Under the pieces are notes generated by a model. That model saw only the letters and a program-made list of their open reading frames with translations, was not told the origin of the DNA and did not search any database. A stretch of 64,000 nt of DNA from Escherichia phage phiAPCEc03: the sequence record NC_047754.1; one strand, 5' to 3'. The position numbers and the translations under genes are program-made. Positions 8,085 to 46,319 of the stretch are shown here, one piece after another (position 1 is the first letter of the stretch; each line of letters starts with the position of its first letter).

Positions 8085-9458
8085 ATGACTATTGATATTA
8101 ATAAGCTGAAAGAAGAACTTGGTCTGGGTGATCTGGCTAAATCTCTGGAAGGTCTGACCGCTGCTCAGAAAGCTCAGGAAGCTGAACGTATGCGTAAAGA
8201 GCAGGAAGAAAAAGAACTGGCTCGTATGAATGACCTGGTTTCTAAAGCTGTTGGTGAAGACCGTAAGCGTCTGGAAGAGGCTCTGGATCTGGTTAAGTCT
8301 CTGGATGAGAAATCTAAGAAGAGCGCAGAACTGTTTGCACAAACTGTAGAAAAACAACAGGAAACTATTGTTGGTCTTCAGGACGAAATTAAATCTCTGC
8401 TAACAGCTCGTGAAGGTCGTTCCTTTGTTGGTGATAGTGTTGCTAAAGCACTGTACGGTACTCAGGAAAACTTTGAAGACGAAGTAGAAAAACTGGTTCT
8501 GTTGTCTTATGTAATGGAAAAAGGTGTATTCGAAACCGAACACGGTCAAAAACACCTGAAAGCAGTGAATCAGTCCTATTCTGTAGAAGTTTCTAGTGAA
8601 AGCTATGAAACTATTTTCTCCCAGCGTATTATCCGTGACCTGCAGAAAGAGCTGGTAGTTGGCGCACTGTTCGAAGAACTGCCGATGTCTAGTAAAATTC
8701 TTACTATGTTGGTTGAGCCAGACGCTGGTAAAGCTACTTGGGTTGCTGCTTCTACTTATGGTACTGATGCAACTACTGGTAATGAAGTTAAAGGTGCTCT
8801 TAAAGAAATCCACTTCAGTACTTACAAACTGGCTGCTAAGTCCTTCATTACTGATGAAACTGAAGAAGATGCAATCTTCTCTCTGCTGCCTCTGCTGCGT
8901 AAACGCCTGATTGAAGCACACGCTGTTTCTATCGAAGAAGCGTTTATGACTGGTGATGGTTCTGGTAAGCCGAAAGGCCTGTTGACTCTTGCTAGAGAAG
9001 ATGATGCTAAAGTTGCTACTGAAGCTAAAGCTGATGGTACTGTTCTGGTAACTGCTAAAACTATCTCTAAACTGCGTCGTAAACTGGGTCGTCATGGTCT
9101 GAAACTGAGCAAACTGGTACTTATCGTATCTATGGATGCTTACTACGATCTTCTGGAAGATGAAGAATGGCAGGATGTTGCACAGGTTGGTAACGATGCT
9201 GTTAAACTGCAAGGTCAGGTTGGTCGTATTTACGGTCTGCCGGTTGTAGTTTCTGAGTACTTCCCAGCTAAAGCTGCTTCCGCAGAGTTCGCAGTTATTG
9301 TTTATAAAGATAACTTCGTAATGCCGCGTCAGCGTGCTGTTACTGTTGAGCGTGAGCGCCAAGCTGGTAAACAGCGTGACGCATACTACGTTACCCAGCG
9401 TGTTAACCTGCAACGTTACTTTGCAAATGGCGTTGTATCTGGTACTTACGATGCTTAA
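8085..9458 (+). CDS. major capsid protein precursor (HK97 fold with N-terminal delta/scaffold domain)
   Basis: 457 aa; N-terminal ~150 aa coiled-coil rich in E/K/L (delta domain); strong high-expression codon bias (CTG, CGT, GGT, AAA); followed by strong terminator. Confidence 0.9.
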   Translation: MTIDINKLKEELGLGDLAKSLEGLTAAQKAQEAERMRKEQEEKELARMNDLVSKAVGEDRKRLEEALDLVKSLDEKSKKSAELFAQTVEKQQETIVGLQDEIKSLLTAREGRSFVGDSVAKALYGTQENFEDEVEKLVLLSYVMEKGVFETEHGQKHLKAVNQSYSVEVSSESYETIFSQRIIRDLQKELVVGALFEELPMSSKILTMLVEPDAGKATWVAASTYGTDATTGNEVKGALKEIHFSTYKLAAKSFITDETEEDAIFSLLPLLRKRLIEAHAVSIEEAFMTGDGSGKPKGLLTLAREDDAKVATEAKADGTVLVTAKTISKLRRKLGRHGLKLSKLVLIVSMDAYYDLLEDEEWQDVAQVGNDAVKLQGQVGRIYGLPVVVSEYFPAKAASAEFAVIVYKDNFVMPRQRAVTVERERQAGKQRDAYYVTQRVNLQRYFANGVVSGTYDA

Positions 9459-33712: not shown

Positions 33713-34486
33713 TTAGTCATCCAGATCGCTTGCAGCTTCGTGGTCAATACCTTTCTGGGAACCAGCATTGCTGTTACCAGATTTGGCATCATCATCTTTA
33801 TTCTCACGACCTTCCATGAAGGCTTGAATTGCTTCTTTCTGCTCTTCATAGGTAGGAACCGGATAGGTTTGTTCCAGAGAAGGAACTTTTTCGAACTTAA
33901 TGATGTCGCCATCTTCGTCACACATAGCTTCACCAATCAGATCTACATCCGCAGCATATTGCTTAGATTCTGCACTGTTAGGATCTTGCAGCTTAATCTG
34001 GAACTGCATAGCAGCAATCTGCTGTACATCATACTCAGTATCGAAACCTTTGCCTTTTTTCTCGATAGAAATATCAATATCAAACGGAGTTGCCAGATTC
34101 AACTGCTTCATGATAGACTGGATGCCTTTCAGAATAGTAGCTTTGACTTCCATTACTTTCAGTTTGTTATCGGAACGGTCGATAACAAAAGCGATATAGT
34201 TTTTCTTCGGTTTCAGCGGAACACGATTGCCATCTTTATCCAGCTCTTTCTCAAAGAAGCCCATCTCATGAACCGGGTCAGCTTTACCACGAACAAAGCT
34301 CTCTTTGTCGCGGTTAAAACGGAGACATTCGAAAGGAGCTACGCTACCCTCTTTATTAGTCAGCCAATAGACATAACGTGGAAGAACACCAGAAACGATA
34401 CGAACACGGGTGATACCGTTGTTGAACTTCAGGAATTCGATTTTATCGTTAGAACCGCCAGTAGTTTCGCCCCAAGACTTAGCCAT
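33713..34486 (-). CDS. putative single-stranded DNA-binding protein (acidic C-terminal tail)
   Basis: 257 aa; strong high-expression codon bias; C-terminus ...DHEAASDLDD acidic tail typical of SSBs; flanked by its own terminator. Confidence 0.45.
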   Translation of the reverse strand: MAKSWGETTGGSNDKIEFLKFNNGITRVRIVSGVLPRYVYWLTNKEGSVAPFECLRFNRDKESFVRGKADPVHEMGFFEKELDKDGNRVPLKPKKNYIAFVIDRSDNKLKVMEVKATILKGIQSIMKQLNLATPFDIDISIEKKGKGFDTEYDVQQIAAMQFQIKLQDPNSAESKQYAADVDLIGEAMCDEDGDIIKFEKVPSLEQTYPVPTYEEQKEAIQAFMEGRENKDDDAKSGNSNAGSQKGIDHEAASDLDD

Positions 34487-40873: not shown

Positions 40874-42393
40874 ATATCGCTGGCCTGTTCACCTGTTGAA
40901 TTTTCAGCTTTGTCTTTCTTAGCACGTTTAGATTGAGCTGGCTTATCCTTCTCAATAGGGATAACGAACTCAGCTTCCATTTGAGATATATCTTCCATTG
41001 CTAGGTTGGTAGTGTTATCCATCCGCAGGGTTTCCCAGTTCATTTTAGGCATAAACTTCACGCTATCAGAAGAACGAGTCTTAACGAAGTCAAACATAAT
41101 AGCACCTTGACCATTATCAGCTTTTGCAGCATTAAGATTAGCAGCCATGTCTGCGGAATCAAGAATCCCCTTTGACATACGTGTTCTACCATCTTGATCA
41201 ATCTGGTAAGGAGCTACACCAGCCACGTTATGTTTCTGGCAGATAGATTTGAAAGACGAGCTAACAACCATCTGTTCTTTCCAGTCATACATATCAATGG
41301 TTTTAGAGTCTGGAAGTCGGGTTTGGTTAATATAGTCCAGTAAAGCTACTGTAACTTTATCCCCATATCTAGCAACTAATTTATTTAATTCTACGTCAAC
41401 TGTTGTAATAGACAGCTCAGGATCATAAACAATAATCATAGGAGTATGTAGCTCATATCCTTCTATTAGCTTACTTTCCATATCGTAGAAATCACTCATC
41501 TTAGCCATTGTGTACTGTTTAACGAAATTGTCGAAAAGCTCTTCACCACCGTTAAACATCCTAGCTCTAGTTCTGGCTAATCTCAACAGAGCTGCACCTT
41601 CTAGAGTATTATTACGCATTGCTAGTGCTGATACACCAGCTAGCATAGCTAGATTACGTCTAAATACTTCATGTTCTTTCATCTCAATTGAGAAGTATGG
41701 AGCAATATCTCCATTCAAATATTGCTGAACCTGTATGTTTGAACAGATAATGGATTTACCAGTACCACGCCAACCACCAAGCAGTAACGTTTCTGTGCGA
41801 GCTAAACCAATTTGAGCGTCGAACTCATTACAAATACCAAGAGCGATTAAGTTCAGTTTGGTATCTTCTTCTCTCTGGAAAATACGCATGTTATCTGCGT
41901 TGAATACTTTTCCAGTATTCGTTACTTTCTCTTCTAATTTTAAGTGAAGGGAGGCAACTCGGTTAAGAATTTCTCCCTGATCCAGCATTGTTAAATCTTG
42001 AAGCACGTCTGTTTCTAGAAGCTTCAGGAATAAATCCTGTGTATACTCGGCCTCTAGGACTTCAAGTGCCTGTTCCATGCTAACTTCTGGAATTTGAGTG
42101 TTAGCTAAGACGACTAGAGCTTGAGAAAGGCGGGCGTTCCTATTAGCTTCAAGCATAAGTGCGTCAATGGACGGCATTGTGTTATATTTTTTATAATAAT
42201 TCTGGACGGCTTGGTAAATTGAGGAGAAAGCGTCATTAAAATGATCTTTATGCAGTTTTGAGAATGTTTCCAATGCTATTTGCTTCTGTTCGGAAGCTAG
42301 AAGCATCTTCAACACTACAGCTTGCACGTTAAACAAGGTCATTCTCCTTTGCACGCTTTCGTGCCTTCTAAATGCAAAAAGGGGAAGGAGCAT
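40870..42393 (-). CDS. DnaB-like replicative DNA helicase
   Basis: 507 aa; RecA-like C-terminal domain with Walker A GGWRGTGKS; adjacent to primase. Confidence 0.65.
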   Translation of the reverse strand: MLLPLFAFRRHESVQRRMTLFNVQAVVLKMLLASEQKQIALETFSKLHKDHFNDAFSSIYQAVQNYYKKYNTMPSIDALMLEANRNARLSQALVVLANTQIPEVSMEQALEVLEAEYTQDLFLKLLETDVLQDLTMLDQGEILNRVASLHLKLEEKVTNTGKVFNADNMRIFQREEDTKLNLIALGICNEFDAQIGLARTETLLLGGWRGTGKSIICSNIQVQQYLNGDIAPYFSIEMKEHEVFRRNLAMLAGVSALAMRNNTLEGAALLRLARTRARMFNGGEELFDNFVKQYTMAKMSDFYDMESKLIEGYELHTPMIIVYDPELSITTVDVELNKLVARYGDKVTVALLDYINQTRLPDSKTIDMYDWKEQMVVSSSFKSICQKHNVAGVAPYQIDQDGRTRMSKGILDSADMAANLNAAKADNGQGAIMFDFVKTRSSDSVKFMPKMNWETLRMDNTTNLAMEDISQMEAEFVIPIEKDKPAQSKRAKKDKAENSTGEQASDI

Positions 42394-42424
42394 AGCCCCC
42401 TCCCCTTAGGTTTAATTTACCAGA
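42394..42424 (-). terminator. intrinsic terminator
   Basis: Minus-strand hairpin AAGGGGAGGG-ggctatgct-CCTTCCCCTT followed by TTTGCATTT. Confidence 0.55.
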
Positions 42425-43192
42425 TTATTCAGCAGCCGCAGCTTTTGCATCCAGTTTAGCACGCTTAGCGGCACCATCATAGTCCTTAGCAACCAGACCA
42501 CGACGAGACAGCATAGATTTAACACCGCGCTCAGATTTACCAGTTTTCTCAGCGATCTCAGCAACAGTCATGTTAACCAGATCCAGACCTTCTAACAGAT
42601 CTTCACGAGTTTTAGCACTTGAGGTTTCCTGTACCGGCATAGCAGCGATACGACCTTCACGAAGCAGGCTCAGAGCTTTACCACGGATCTGCTTAATATT
42701 GCGACCGAAGTGAGCAGCGATAGCTTCAATAGTAGCACCAGCAACAACCTGATTAACAAAATCAGTTTCTTCATCCGGAGTGAAGGAACGAACAGCAGCA
42801 GCTTTTTCGGTTGGCTTAACAGAAGCGGTCATTTCCAGACTCAGGATCTTACCCTGTACCTGTTTAGCACCGAACTGACCACCAGCTACAGCAGCAGCGA
42901 TTTCAGCATAGGTATACTGACCAGCATGAGCGTTCAGGAAATCAACCAGTTCAGCTTCCTGCTCAGGAGTCCATGGGGATTTCTGTACTTCGTTGGCTTT
43001 CTGTACTTCAAAACCTTCTTTACGCAGTTTAGAACCAACAGAGCGGGCAGTAACATCTTTGCCAGTTTCAGCAGCCAGTTCAGCAGCGATAGCAGCTACT
43101 TGTTCTTGAGAGATTACAGAAACACCCAGAGCAGTGGCTTTTGCTTTCAGAGACTCGGTTACACCTTCTACGTTCCAGTTCAGTTTAGACAT
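42425..43192 (-). CDS. abundant DNA-binding protein with three HTH-like repeats (possibly T5 D5-like)
   Basis: 255 aa; three similar segments (YTYAEIAAAVAGGQFGAKQVQGKILSL / ATIEAIAAHFGRNIKQIRGKALSL / MTVAEIAEKTGKSERGVKSMLSRRGL); high-expression codon usage; Ala-rich. Confidence 0.45.
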   Translation of the reverse strand: MSKLNWNVEGVTESLKAKATALGVSVISQEQVAAIAAELAAETGKDVTARSVGSKLRKEGFEVQKANEVQKSPWTPEQEAELVDFLNAHAGQYTYAEIAAAVAGGQFGAKQVQGKILSLEMTASVKPTEKAAAVRSFTPDEETDFVNQVVAGATIEAIAAHFGRNIKQIRGKALSLLREGRIAAMPVQETSSAKTREDLLEGLDLVNMTVAEIAEKTGKSERGVKSMLSRRGLVAKDYDGAAKRAKLDAKAAAAE

Positions 43193-43958
43193 TATTATTT
43201 TTCTCCAATAGTTCTTTAATCGACAGGATTTCTATCCCATTCGTTTCGGCTTTCTTATAAGATGAGGAAGAACGTTTTGATTCATCCTCACAGATCAGGT
43301 ATTTGACATCTTTGGTAACGGATTTCTTAACCGTATATCCTAGACCTTCTAAATAGTTTGTTGCATCCGTTCTATTTGCAAAGTCTTGCAAAGATCCGGT
43401 AATACATACCGCGATTCCATTTGGCTGGGCAACTAAATCATCAGTAACGACGGTTTTAGCTTTAGCACCAGTTGAGAATTTCCACGGTAATTCGATAACA
43501 TCCTTGCCTTGTGGGGAATTTAGCCAGGCTTTATAGTTTTCTCCAGCCTTGCCGTCAGCCTTCACATCGTGGAAGCTAGTGCAATTTTGGGATAATTTCT
43601 TTGCTGCAACCTCTCCGATTAGAGGGATTCCTAAAGAACCGAGAACTGAACCAAAGTCAATGTCTCCGCGAACTTTAGTATTTAATTCGCTAATTAACTT
43701 AGCGGCAACCTTGCTACCCACGGCTCTAACCAAATCTTCTTCGGTTAGGTAAAATAGTTCTGAAATCTTCGTCAGCTCCAGCTTCTCAATAGTTTTTGGA
43801 CCAAAGCCCTTTAACTTAATTTTTGTACAGAAGTTCTCAATTAACTTACTTGATTGCGCTGGACAGTTGGACTTATTCCGACAGAATAATTGTCCGTTGA
43901 CAAGATCTAGCTTAGAACCACAAGAGGGACATTGTGTTGGAATTTCGATTTTCATCAA
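43185..43958 (-). CDS. ligB: NAD-dependent DNA ligase, C-terminal subunit (Zn finger, HhH, BRCT-like)
   Basis: 257 aa; CPSCGSKLDLVNGQLFCRNKSNC zinc finger near N-terminus, helix-hairpin-helix-like segments; separate ORF from adenylation domain. Confidence 0.7.
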   Translation of the reverse strand: MMKIEIPTQCPSCGSKLDLVNGQLFCRNKSNCPAQSSKLIENFCTKIKLKGFGPKTIEKLELTKISELFYLTEEDLVRAVGSKVAAKLISELNTKVRGDIDFGSVLGSLGIPLIGEVAAKKLSQNCTSFHDVKADGKAGENYKAWLNSPQGKDVIELPWKFSTGAKAKTVVTDDLVAQPNGIAVCITGSLQDFANRTDATNYLEGLGYTVKKSVTKDVKYLICEDESKRSSSSYKKAETNGIEILSIKELLEKNNNV

Positions 43959-43985: not shown

Positions 43986-44014
43986 ATTATAGCAAGTATT
44001 TAAGCATTTAGCAA
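43986..44014 (-). promoter_or_regulatory. sigma70 promoter between the ligase halves (-35 TTGCTA, 17 nt, -10 TATAAT)
   Basis: Minus strand TTGCTA-aatgcttaaatacttgc-TATAAT-ATTTATATAAATTGAT. Confidence 0.6.
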
Positions 44015-44157
44015 CTACAATTTTAACTAACTTTGCTTACCCTCGCCATAACTTTCTATCCCTCAACTGAATGATAATAGTATATACCTAAGCGGCGAAA
44101 ATGTCAATAACCACTTTATAATTCCGATATGGTAGATGGGTAGCAAAGGGTTATGTA

Positions 44158-45908: not shown

Positions 45909-46319
45909 TTACTTAGTGATAGCTCGGATTGCTTCTGCCAGATGAGCAGCCGCTTTACCGGTCAGTTTGTCGATAATTGCATCATCCAGAAAATCTGGTG
46001 CTAGGCCAGCATCAGAGAATGCTGAACGAAGGTCGGCGTGAGCTTGGGCTTTGGAGGTACGAGAACCACCGGAAGCTTTTTCTCCAGTAGATGCGCTAGA
46101 TTTAGAAGCAGAGCCAGCAGCTTTCTTGATATACAAACCTGCTTTAGTCAGCTTCATACGAAAACCGTTCGGAGTTACACCATTTTCCTGGGCAATTTCG
46201 CTAACAATTTCCATGCTAACACCCGGACGTTCATCCTCTGGGAATTGCTCCATACGAGCAACGTATTCGGAAGACATTTTTTCGAACAGTTCATCAGTCC
46301 ACTGAGTTGGAGTAGTCAT
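45909..46319 (-). CDS. hypothetical protein (Ser/Ala-rich low-complexity centre)
   Basis: 136 aa ORF downstream of promoter at 46377. Confidence 0.45.
   Translation of the reverse strand: MTTPTQWTDELFEKMSSEYVARMEQFPEDERPGVSMEIVSEIAQENGVTPNGFRMKLTKAGLYIKKAAGSASKSSASTGEKASGGSRTSKAQAHADLRSAFSDAGLAPDFLDDAIIDKLTGKAAAHLAEAIRAITK

Follow-up and report, generated by a model that had tools for sequence, protein, structure and literature searches.

Identification of the gene at 42425..43192

Which protein is encoded by the open reading frame at positions 42425..43192, minus strand, of the DNA analyzed here, and in what way does the protein act on DNA? The analyzed stretch, referred to as the window, comprises 64,000 nucleotides of Escherichia phage phiAPCEc03 (NC_047754.1). 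The frame starts with an ATG and contains 255 codons followed by a TAA stop codon. The initial annotation, made from the sequence alone, ascribed the frame to an abundant DNA-binding protein, and suggested that the protein might be of the D5 type of phage T5. This suggestion is correct, as the window protein is the orthologue of T5.118, the D5 protein of phage T5 (YP_006946), with which it shares 254 of 255 residues at equal length. The sole amino-acid change is at residue 25, which is serine in the window protein and aspartate in that of T5. The D5 nucleotide sequence is 96.6% identical to that of T5, and the combination of 24 synonymous differences with one changed codon indicates strong purifying selection on D5. 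The D5 DNA of Salmonella phage GSP044 is 99.0% identical to that of the window. On sequence grounds, the source of the window is a close relative of T5 and not T5 itself.

The protein matches the PHROG 323 family "transcriptional regulator, D5-like" over residues 1–253 with an E-value of 1.4e-71. A megablast search with the D5 nucleotide sequence matched 516 phage records, and a tblastn search with the protein found the gene in 901 phage records, which include phages of Salmonella, Escherichia, Klebsiella, Vibrio, Proteus, and Aeromonas. Among the matches listed, the D5-bearing genomes are approximately 91–128 kb long, apart from one 44-kb record, and the five D5-bearing records for which a taxonomy or description was seen all belong to Demerecviridae or are T5-like. 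Many of the matched phage records carry the annotation "D5 protein" or "transcription factor D5". An exhaustive profile search with the D5 family retrieved 500 representative clusters at E <= 1e-3, including 75 at E <= 1e-30, and most of these clusters contain proteins of 240–255 amino acids. A search of NCBIfam yielded no family for D5 or for the phage DNA-binding protein D3. In the family alignment of D5, residues M1 and W6 are invariant and K3 is nearly so, and this conservation of the N-terminus shows that the start codon is assigned correctly.

The frame is the D5 gene of a Tequintavirus close to T5, and no test that was run contradicts this identity. The gene itself is already known and belongs to textbook T5 biology; it adds no new entity. 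Plus-strand open reading frames overlap the gene, for example a Ser-rich frame of 169 amino acids at 42710..43219. They run opposite to D5 without independent support, and we interpret them as antisense shadows of the D5 frame, which is rich in GCT.

Predicted structure of D5

The structure of D5 was predicted by AlphaFold2 using an alignment of 31 D5 family sequences. The model has a mean pLDDT of 92.7 and a pTM of only 0.49; the relative placement of its modules is therefore undefined, though each module is confidently folded. As shown by the prediction, D5 is composed of four small helix-turn-helix (HTH) modules with conserved linkers, and a C-terminal helix. Each predicted module is a helical bundle containing an HTH and a conserved third helix, which is the recognition helix. 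All modules are encoded on the minus strand of the window.

Module 1 (43019..43162, residues 11–58) is a three-helix HTH formed by helices 11–22, 29–43, and 49–58 in the model. Its third helix has the sequence TARSVGSKLRK, and residues R50, K55, L56, and R57 are invariant. Pfam gives weak matches of module 1 to HTH_33 and Tc3-type domains, which are under the cut-off. Module 2 (42839..42967, residues 76–118) is a three-helix HTH that resembles Myb and homeodomain folds, with helices 76–88, 95–101, and 109–118 and the third helix AKQVQGKILS, in which Q113, G114, K115, and L117 are invariant. It matches Myb_DNA-binding of Pfam, under the cut-off. Module 3 (42659..42778, residues 139–178), also a three-helix HTH, is built from helices 139–150, 155–162, and 166–178. 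Its third helix is IKQIRGKALSLLR, with G171 and K172 invariant. Residues 151–184 match HTH_23 with an E-value of 1.4e-4, under the cut-off, and HTH_23 is found in 21 of the 31 family members at E <= 0.01. A separate model of residues 71–190 reproduced modules 2 and 3 with a pLDDT of 90.8.

Module 4 (42476..42607, residues 196–239) is a divergent HTH resembling region 4 of sigma-70. The model contains helices 210–217 and 221–231, and strands at residues 234 and 239, which form a short β-hairpin after the recognition helix. Residues G223, L228, R230, and R231 are invariant. Residues 204–230 match the Pfam domain Sigma70_r4_2 with 28.8 bits against a cut-off of 25.7, and the domain is detected in 27 of the 31 family members at the same E-value threshold as used for HTH_23. 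It is the only Pfam match among the D5 modules that exceeds its curated cut-off. The modules are followed by an Ala/Lys-rich C-terminal helix (42431..42475, minus strand, residues 240–254 in the model), in which G240 is invariant and K246 nearly invariant.

The four third helices have a common conserved signature, [R/Q]-G-K/S...L-S, represented by RSVGSKLRK, VQGKILSL, IRGKALSL, and ERGVKSMLSRR in modules 1 to 4. The third helices, 44 residues in total, contain 14 of the 27 invariant columns of the family alignment (Fisher p = 1e-5), and 25 of the 56 columns that are invariant or nearly invariant (p = 2e-8). Conserved motifs are present in the linkers as well, namely VQKA, VKPTEK..R, and MPxQ.

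Internal repeats of D5

The initial annotation described three similar HTH-like segments of approximately 25 residues and proposed their alignment as a check. The HTH repeats are real, whereas the count differs, since the AlphaFold2 model contains four modules. In the single sequence, modules 2 and 3 align with a score of 54 and a z-value of 8.1, with no equivalent among 1000 shuffles, and constitute the only significant pair. The other pairs are weak, with z-values of 2.6–3.0 for the combinations of modules 1 and 4, 2 and 4, and 3 and 4. Comparisons of profiles by hhalign gave E-values of 9e-9 for modules 2 and 3, 9e-5 for modules 3 and 4, 1.6e-4 for modules 1 and 4, and 3e-3 for modules 1 and 3.

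A hidden Markov model built from modules 2 and 3 detects module 1 in 10 of the 31 family members (i-E <= 0.1), all of them shorter relatives, with scores reaching 19 bits, compared with at most 7.8 for shuffled sequences. The same model did not find module 1 in the window protein, in which there is an insertion at module 1, and it never clearly found module 4 in the 31 family members. Therefore, sequence comparison by itself does not demonstrate that D5 contains four copies of one repeat. The protein has two clear copies (modules 2 and 3), one weaker relative (module 1), and one divergent HTH (module 4).

Composition, codon usage, and abundance of D5

D5 has a mass of 27.1 kDa and a pI of 6.8. 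Alanine accounts for 44 of its 255 residues (17.3%), in agreement with the earlier description of the protein as Ala-rich; the alanine content of the other window frames listed with a high codon adaptation index (CAI) is 4–10%, with the exception of D3 (15%). The protein contains 34 lysine and arginine residues and 34 aspartate and glutamate residues. In being near-neutral, D5 is unlike most DNA-coating proteins, which counts against a model in which it coats DNA.

The CAI of D5 is 0.71, the highest among the 56 open reading frames of at least 100 amino acids in the window (median 0.26, standard deviation 0.12), as calculated with the weights of Sharp & Li 1987. The next ranks are occupied by the major head protein (0.66), the single-stranded DNA-binding protein (SSB) D11 (0.57), and the DNA-binding protein D3 (0.56). 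These neighbors in the ranking are expected to be proteins wanted in stoichiometric amounts. D5 uses GCT for 37 of 44 alanines, CTG for 17 of 19 leucines, GGT for 18 of 19 glycines, and CGT or CGC for all 12 arginines. The effective number of codons (Nc), a measure that needs no reference table, is 30.7 for D5, compared with 55.3 for the co-transcribed ligB, which has a CAI of just 0.245, and 49.1 for the D6 gene. The same contrast is present in Vibrio phage Chester, with Nc values of 30.4 for D5, 54.0 for ligB, and 45.3 for the helicase gene. The extreme codon bias of D5 is thus shown to be conserved across the family. The high-expression codon usage proposed previously is confirmed by the CAI and independently by the Nc. 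In the T5-like Yersinia phage phiR2-01, the D5 homologue Gp110 was detected by mass spectrometry of particle preparations with spectral counts above 100 (PMC8624392); together with the codon bias, this supports the proposed high expression of the protein.

Transcription unit and terminator

The gene order ligB, D5, DnaB-like helicase, primase, polymerase is common to the window and T5 (Markadamsvirinae), Vibrio phage Chester (Ermolyevavirinae), and Proteus phage PM135 (Novosibvirus). The ligB gene (43185..43958, minus strand) encodes subunit B of the NAD-dependent DNA ligase, a protein of 257 amino acids, as assigned by PHROG 3498 (E 1e-135) and the T5 annotation. It lies upstream of D5 in one transcription unit, and its end overlaps the D5 ATG by eight nucleotides. 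A Shine-Dalgarno sequence, GGAG (43203..43206, minus strand), read directly from the DNA, precedes the ATG by ten nucleotides. The gene downstream of D5 encodes the DnaB-like helicase D6 (PHROG 19).

Two minus-strand sequences that match sigma-70 promoters are located upstream of ligB, as determined by a promoter scan and the T5 annotation. The promoter at 43986..44014 corresponds to T5 P-K28a and is composed of TTGCTA, a 17-nucleotide spacer, and TG-TATAAT, whereas that at 44079..44107 corresponds to T5 P-K28b, with TTGACA, 17 nucleotides, and TATACT. Over the aligned stretch, neither differs from the T5 early promoter annotated under that name. A scan of the minus strand between the ligB start and D5 found no promoter-like site, and D5 is therefore taken to be transcribed behind ligB, as the second of two genes in one unit.

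The unit ends with an intrinsic terminator at 42369..42407 on the minus strand, just before the helicase gene. The terminator hairpin (42407..42379) begins 18 nucleotides past the D5 TAA and has a 13-bp stem with eight G-C pairs and a UAU loop, followed by a T run. In a scan of 5.5 kb, it ranked first among the terminator-like sites. The folding energy of the 96-nucleotide terminator region is -33.9 kcal/mol (z = -3.2), and none of 200 shuffled sequences folds as well. The intergenic region between D5 and D6, which contains the terminator, is 100% identical to that of T5. In phage PM135, the D5 of which is 55% identical to that of the window, the gene is followed by an equivalent hairpin, also of 13 bp but built from other stem bases. 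In phage Chester (D5 48% identical), the gene is followed by a hairpin with G-U pairs and then a T run. The dedicated terminator recognized in the initial annotation is thereby verified.

Reported functions of D5 and the triggering of a retron

The annotation of D5 in the T5 RefSeq record describes a DNA-binding protein that is needed for DNA replication and late transcription and has a role in the shutoff of expression. In the literature, D5 is a protein that binds double-stranded DNA and on which T5 depends for its early-to-late switch, the shut-off of early genes included. Whether the protein binds DNA in vitro, the point on which the initial annotation had staked its reading, was in effect answered in 1979 for T5 D5 by McCorquodale et al. 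(J Virol 29:322), according to the citation of that work in PMC12630848.

According to a 2026 preprint, the type IX retron-Kva2 is triggered by T5 D5 (PMC13405049). The phage that escaped the retron carried the changes G53D, W74*, V149I, and G232D in D5. In the same study, D5 alone was mildly toxic to uninfected E. coli, mass photometry showed D5 to be a 26-kDa monomer, and D5 remodelled the retron complex in a concentration-dependent manner. An AlphaFold3 prediction reported there has an HTH of D5 bound to the stem-loop of the retron msdDNA (PMC13405049). A paper on DRT4 concerns T5 ORF55 and not D5, and the "putative DNA-binding protein" in the supplement of PMC13250531 is given no name there.

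Residues G53, W74, and G232 belong to columns with a conservation of 90% or more in the 31-sequence D5 alignment. The escaper change G53D is located in module 1, and G232D in module 4. Given the near-identity of the two proteins, the ability to bind double-stranded DNA can be safely transferred from T5 D5 to the window protein, which is predicted to have it. Rice and colleagues are said to have found in 1979, in J Biol Chem, that purified D5 binds duplex DNA cooperatively and without marked sequence specificity.

Proposed coating of phage DNA by D5

We consider it highly probable that the locus is best explained overall as the D5 gene encoding a four-HTH protein, for which we propose stoichiometric coating of DNA. 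By analogy, the third helix of each D5 module would insert into a major groove of DNA. The conserved linkers would follow the DNA between grooves, so that one D5 monomer would cover several consecutive grooves. Many D5 copies would coat the phage DNA stoichiometrically, rather than working at a few operators. The coat would lower initiation from the early sigma-70 promoters, which are very strong, and would create a template state required for replication and late transcription. The terminator after D5 would raise the output of D5 far above that of the helicase and primase, which would rely on read-through.

Another possibility follows from the initial annotation, in which D5 was put forward as a candidate binder of the conserved promoter cassette: D5 might recognize this early-promoter cassette in a sequence-specific manner and directly repress the early promoters. 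The four HTH modules and their conserved recognition helices would suit such a repressor, and the annotated role of D5 in the shut-off of early expression is in keeping with it. T5 early promoters share an A-rich -45 region, TTGCTA, TATAATAT, and CATAAATT, and an ATATT discriminator common to them sets them apart from late promoters (PMC7472727). The same paper describes the mechanism of the temporal switch in T5 as unknown. Nevertheless, a codon bias above that of the major head protein and SSB is characteristic of a stoichiometric-type protein. The elements of the cassette are those that RNA polymerase itself uses, and the biochemistry of 1979 is reported to speak for non-specific, cooperative binding to duplexes. 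Furthermore, the toxicity of D5 in uninfected E. coli, which lacks T5 promoters, and the predicted binding to msdDNA (PMC13405049) argue that the binding is not confined to T5 promoters. The indirect evidence leans against a specificity of D5 for the early-promoter cassette, and we regard direct repression of the cassette as unlikely.

D5 could also act mainly on RNA polymerase, as a sigma-like factor or one mimicking sigma region 4, and thereby switch the host enzyme to the late promoters; late transcription requires D5. The score of Sigma70_r4_2 on module 4 above its gathering cut-off and the occurrence of sigma-A chains from initiation complexes among the best Foldseek rows point in this direction. 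However, the Sigma70_r4_2 match is limited to a 27-residue HTH core, and the Foldseek E-values, at least 0.02, are not significant. Pfam gave no match to Sigma70_r2 even at E <= 1, and region 3 matched only under the cut-off. Because sigma region 2 is absent according to Pfam, D5 is ruled out as a sigma factor. Moreover, the T5 proteins reported to co-purify with RNA polymerase have masses of 60, 11, 90, and 15 kDa, and not 27–29 kDa (PMC7472727), and T5 genes of every class depend on the sigma-70 holoenzyme for their transcription, as stated in that paper. We therefore find a sigma-like function very improbable. Alternatively, D5 might be mainly a replisome accessory, such as a loader or an origin or fork partner of the DnaB-like helicase, with the transcription phenotypes arising secondarily from a failure of replication. 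The position of D5 directly upstream of the helicase, primase, and polymerase genes in three Demerecviridae lineages fits this role, as does the requirement of D5 for DNA replication. However, Pfam and NCBIfam identify no ATPase or known loader domain in D5, the abundance of D5 is far above the needs of a loader, and the terminator separates D5 from the helicase gene. A role confined mainly to the replisome thus appears quite unlikely.

Returning to the coating of DNA by D5, we speculate that D5 could be a phage "chromatin" protein of a new architecture, a beads-on-a-string array of four HTH modules, the conserved linkers and C-terminal helix of which would let monomers polymerise along phage DNA. 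The early-to-late switch would be set by the coat and not by a dedicated sigma factor or activator. In some relatives, as in phiR2-01, the protein may remain bound to DNA and so reach particle preparations, and retron-type defences would have evolved to sense D5 for being an abundant DNA-coating fold. This extended picture is tentative, and we hold it to be rather doubtful as a whole. The four-module map, the third-helix signature, and the framing of the unit by promoters and terminator are practical guides for mutagenesis and footprinting, rather than discoveries. The residual value of the analysis lies in the mechanism of the early-to-late switch and in the module map.

Comparison of D5 with known DNA-binding proteins

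A search of PDB sequences with the D5 family profile found no D5 structure, and its marginal match was a designed engrailed homeodomain (E 0.0035). Foldseek searches of the PDB with the full model and the model of modules 2 and 3 returned nothing at E < 1e-3, the E-values being at least 0.02. Since no solved structure matches below this threshold, the mode of DNA contact of D5 is proposed by analogy only. HTH proteins on DNA occupy all the top rows of the Foldseek search: sigma-A, TraR, RcsB, DosR, EutK-C, SETMAR/mariner, Tc3, POU, and Pax6. Among predicted viral structures, D5 proteins from other phages match best, and uncharacterised proteins with multiple HTHs come next. A few metagenomic proteins of 500–700 amino acids contain six to eight separate stretches that match the D5 profile, and have Pfam matches to Myb, HTH_7, and HTH_23. 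D5 is a tandem array of four units that falls among the widespread tri-helical HTH proteins, and no close relative of it has a solved structure.

In its construction from small three-helix units on linkers, D5 resembles tandem or bipartite HTH arrays such as the Pax paired domain, the N-terminal part of Tc3/mariner transposases, and Myb R2R3. D5 has weak Pfam matches to HTHs of the array type, namely Myb_DNA-binding, HTH_23, HTH_32, and HTH_Tnp_Tc3_2, and the Foldseek rows include array-type HTHs of the entries 6pax, 1u78, 3hos, and 7s03, none of them significant. In contrast to the Pax, Tc3, and Myb arrays, D5 has four modules, lacks a catalytic domain, and shows the expression traits of an abundant protein and not those of a site-specific factor. 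Module 4 is similar to sigma-70 region 4 and the HTH of the LuxR-FixJ type, as indicated by its match to Sigma70_r4_2 and by TraR, RcsB, DosR, and sigma-A in the Foldseek rows. Unlike sigma-70 and LuxR-FixJ proteins, D5 matches only the HTH core, and is without other sigma regions, a receiver domain, or a ligand domain.

Searches of Pfam, NCBIfam, and the PDB with D5 matched none of HU/IHF, H-NS, and Fis, and the likeness of D5 to classical nucleoid-associated proteins is functional only, if there is any. Protein p6 of phage phi29 showed no sequence relationship to D5 in any search that was run. With a mass of approximately 12 kDa, p6 is unrelated to D5 in size and fold, and is not an HTH array. 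It is an abundant early histone-like protein that binds duplex DNA along the phi29 genome and serves replication and the early-to-late switch. By this analogy of function, p6 may be considered the nearest counterpart of D5.

Start codon of the D6 helicase gene

The gene for the DnaB-like helicase D6 lies downstream of D5 and has two candidate starts (alternative start region, 42342-42393 (-) in the window). The start assigned in the T5 RefSeq record (T5.119) corresponds to that of the longest D6 ORF in the window, an ATG that falls within the loop of the terminator hairpin of D5. In Proteus phage PM135, the annotated start of the helicase, MYNVQAI, lies past the hairpin of that phage, and it aligns with MTLFNVQAV, encoded from the ATG at 42342 in the window. 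The ATG at 42342 is preceded by an AAGGAG motif. Codons 1-17 of the annotated D6 are probably not translated.

A second, small hairpin, GCACG-AAAG-CGTGC (42352-42366 (-)), is positioned between the D5 terminator and the Shine-Dalgarno sequence of D6, upstream of the probable ribosome-binding site. PM135 contains a weaker counterpart in the same position. The hairpin could serve in the processing or translation of read-through transcripts.

Codon adaptation and the ORF antisense to D5

Codon bias in this AT-rich phage follows the proteins for which a high demand is expected. Among the 56 ORFs of at least 100 residues, for which the median E. coli-type CAI is 0.26, the highest values below that of D5 belong to the major head protein (8085-9458 (+); 0.66), the single-stranded DNA-binding protein SSB D11 (33713-34486 (-); 0.57), and D3 (0.56). 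A serine-rich ORF of 169 residues opposite D5 (42710-43219 (+)) was rejected as a gene. Since the antisense of GCT is AGC, the ORF is a shadow of the GCT-rich D5 frame.

Proteins matching D5 within and beyond T5-like phages

The D3 gene (45909-46319 (-)) encodes a 136-residue protein with 15% alanine, assigned to PHROG 1725, 'DNA binding protein'. Module 1 of D5 matches residues 23-68 of D3 (hhalign E-value 1.5e-4, probability 51%), and, judged by this profile alignment, D3 may be a paralogous HTH module. A phage that escaped retron-Kva2, a type IX retron triggered by T5 D5, was mutated in D3 as well (PMC13405049, preprint).

Three metagenomic proteins of 500-700 residues (P0252, P0261, and P0265) each contain six to eight separate stretches matching the D5 profile, and their Pfam matches are Myb, HTH_7, and HTH_23. 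Therefore, long poly-HTH arrays related to the modules of D5 occur beyond T5-like phages.

D5 has no known status as a virion component of T5. The D5 homolog of the T5-like Yersinia phage phiR2-01 was counted among the 'major' particle-associated proteins (PMC8624392), and its presence there could reflect either carry-over with DNA or genuine packaging.
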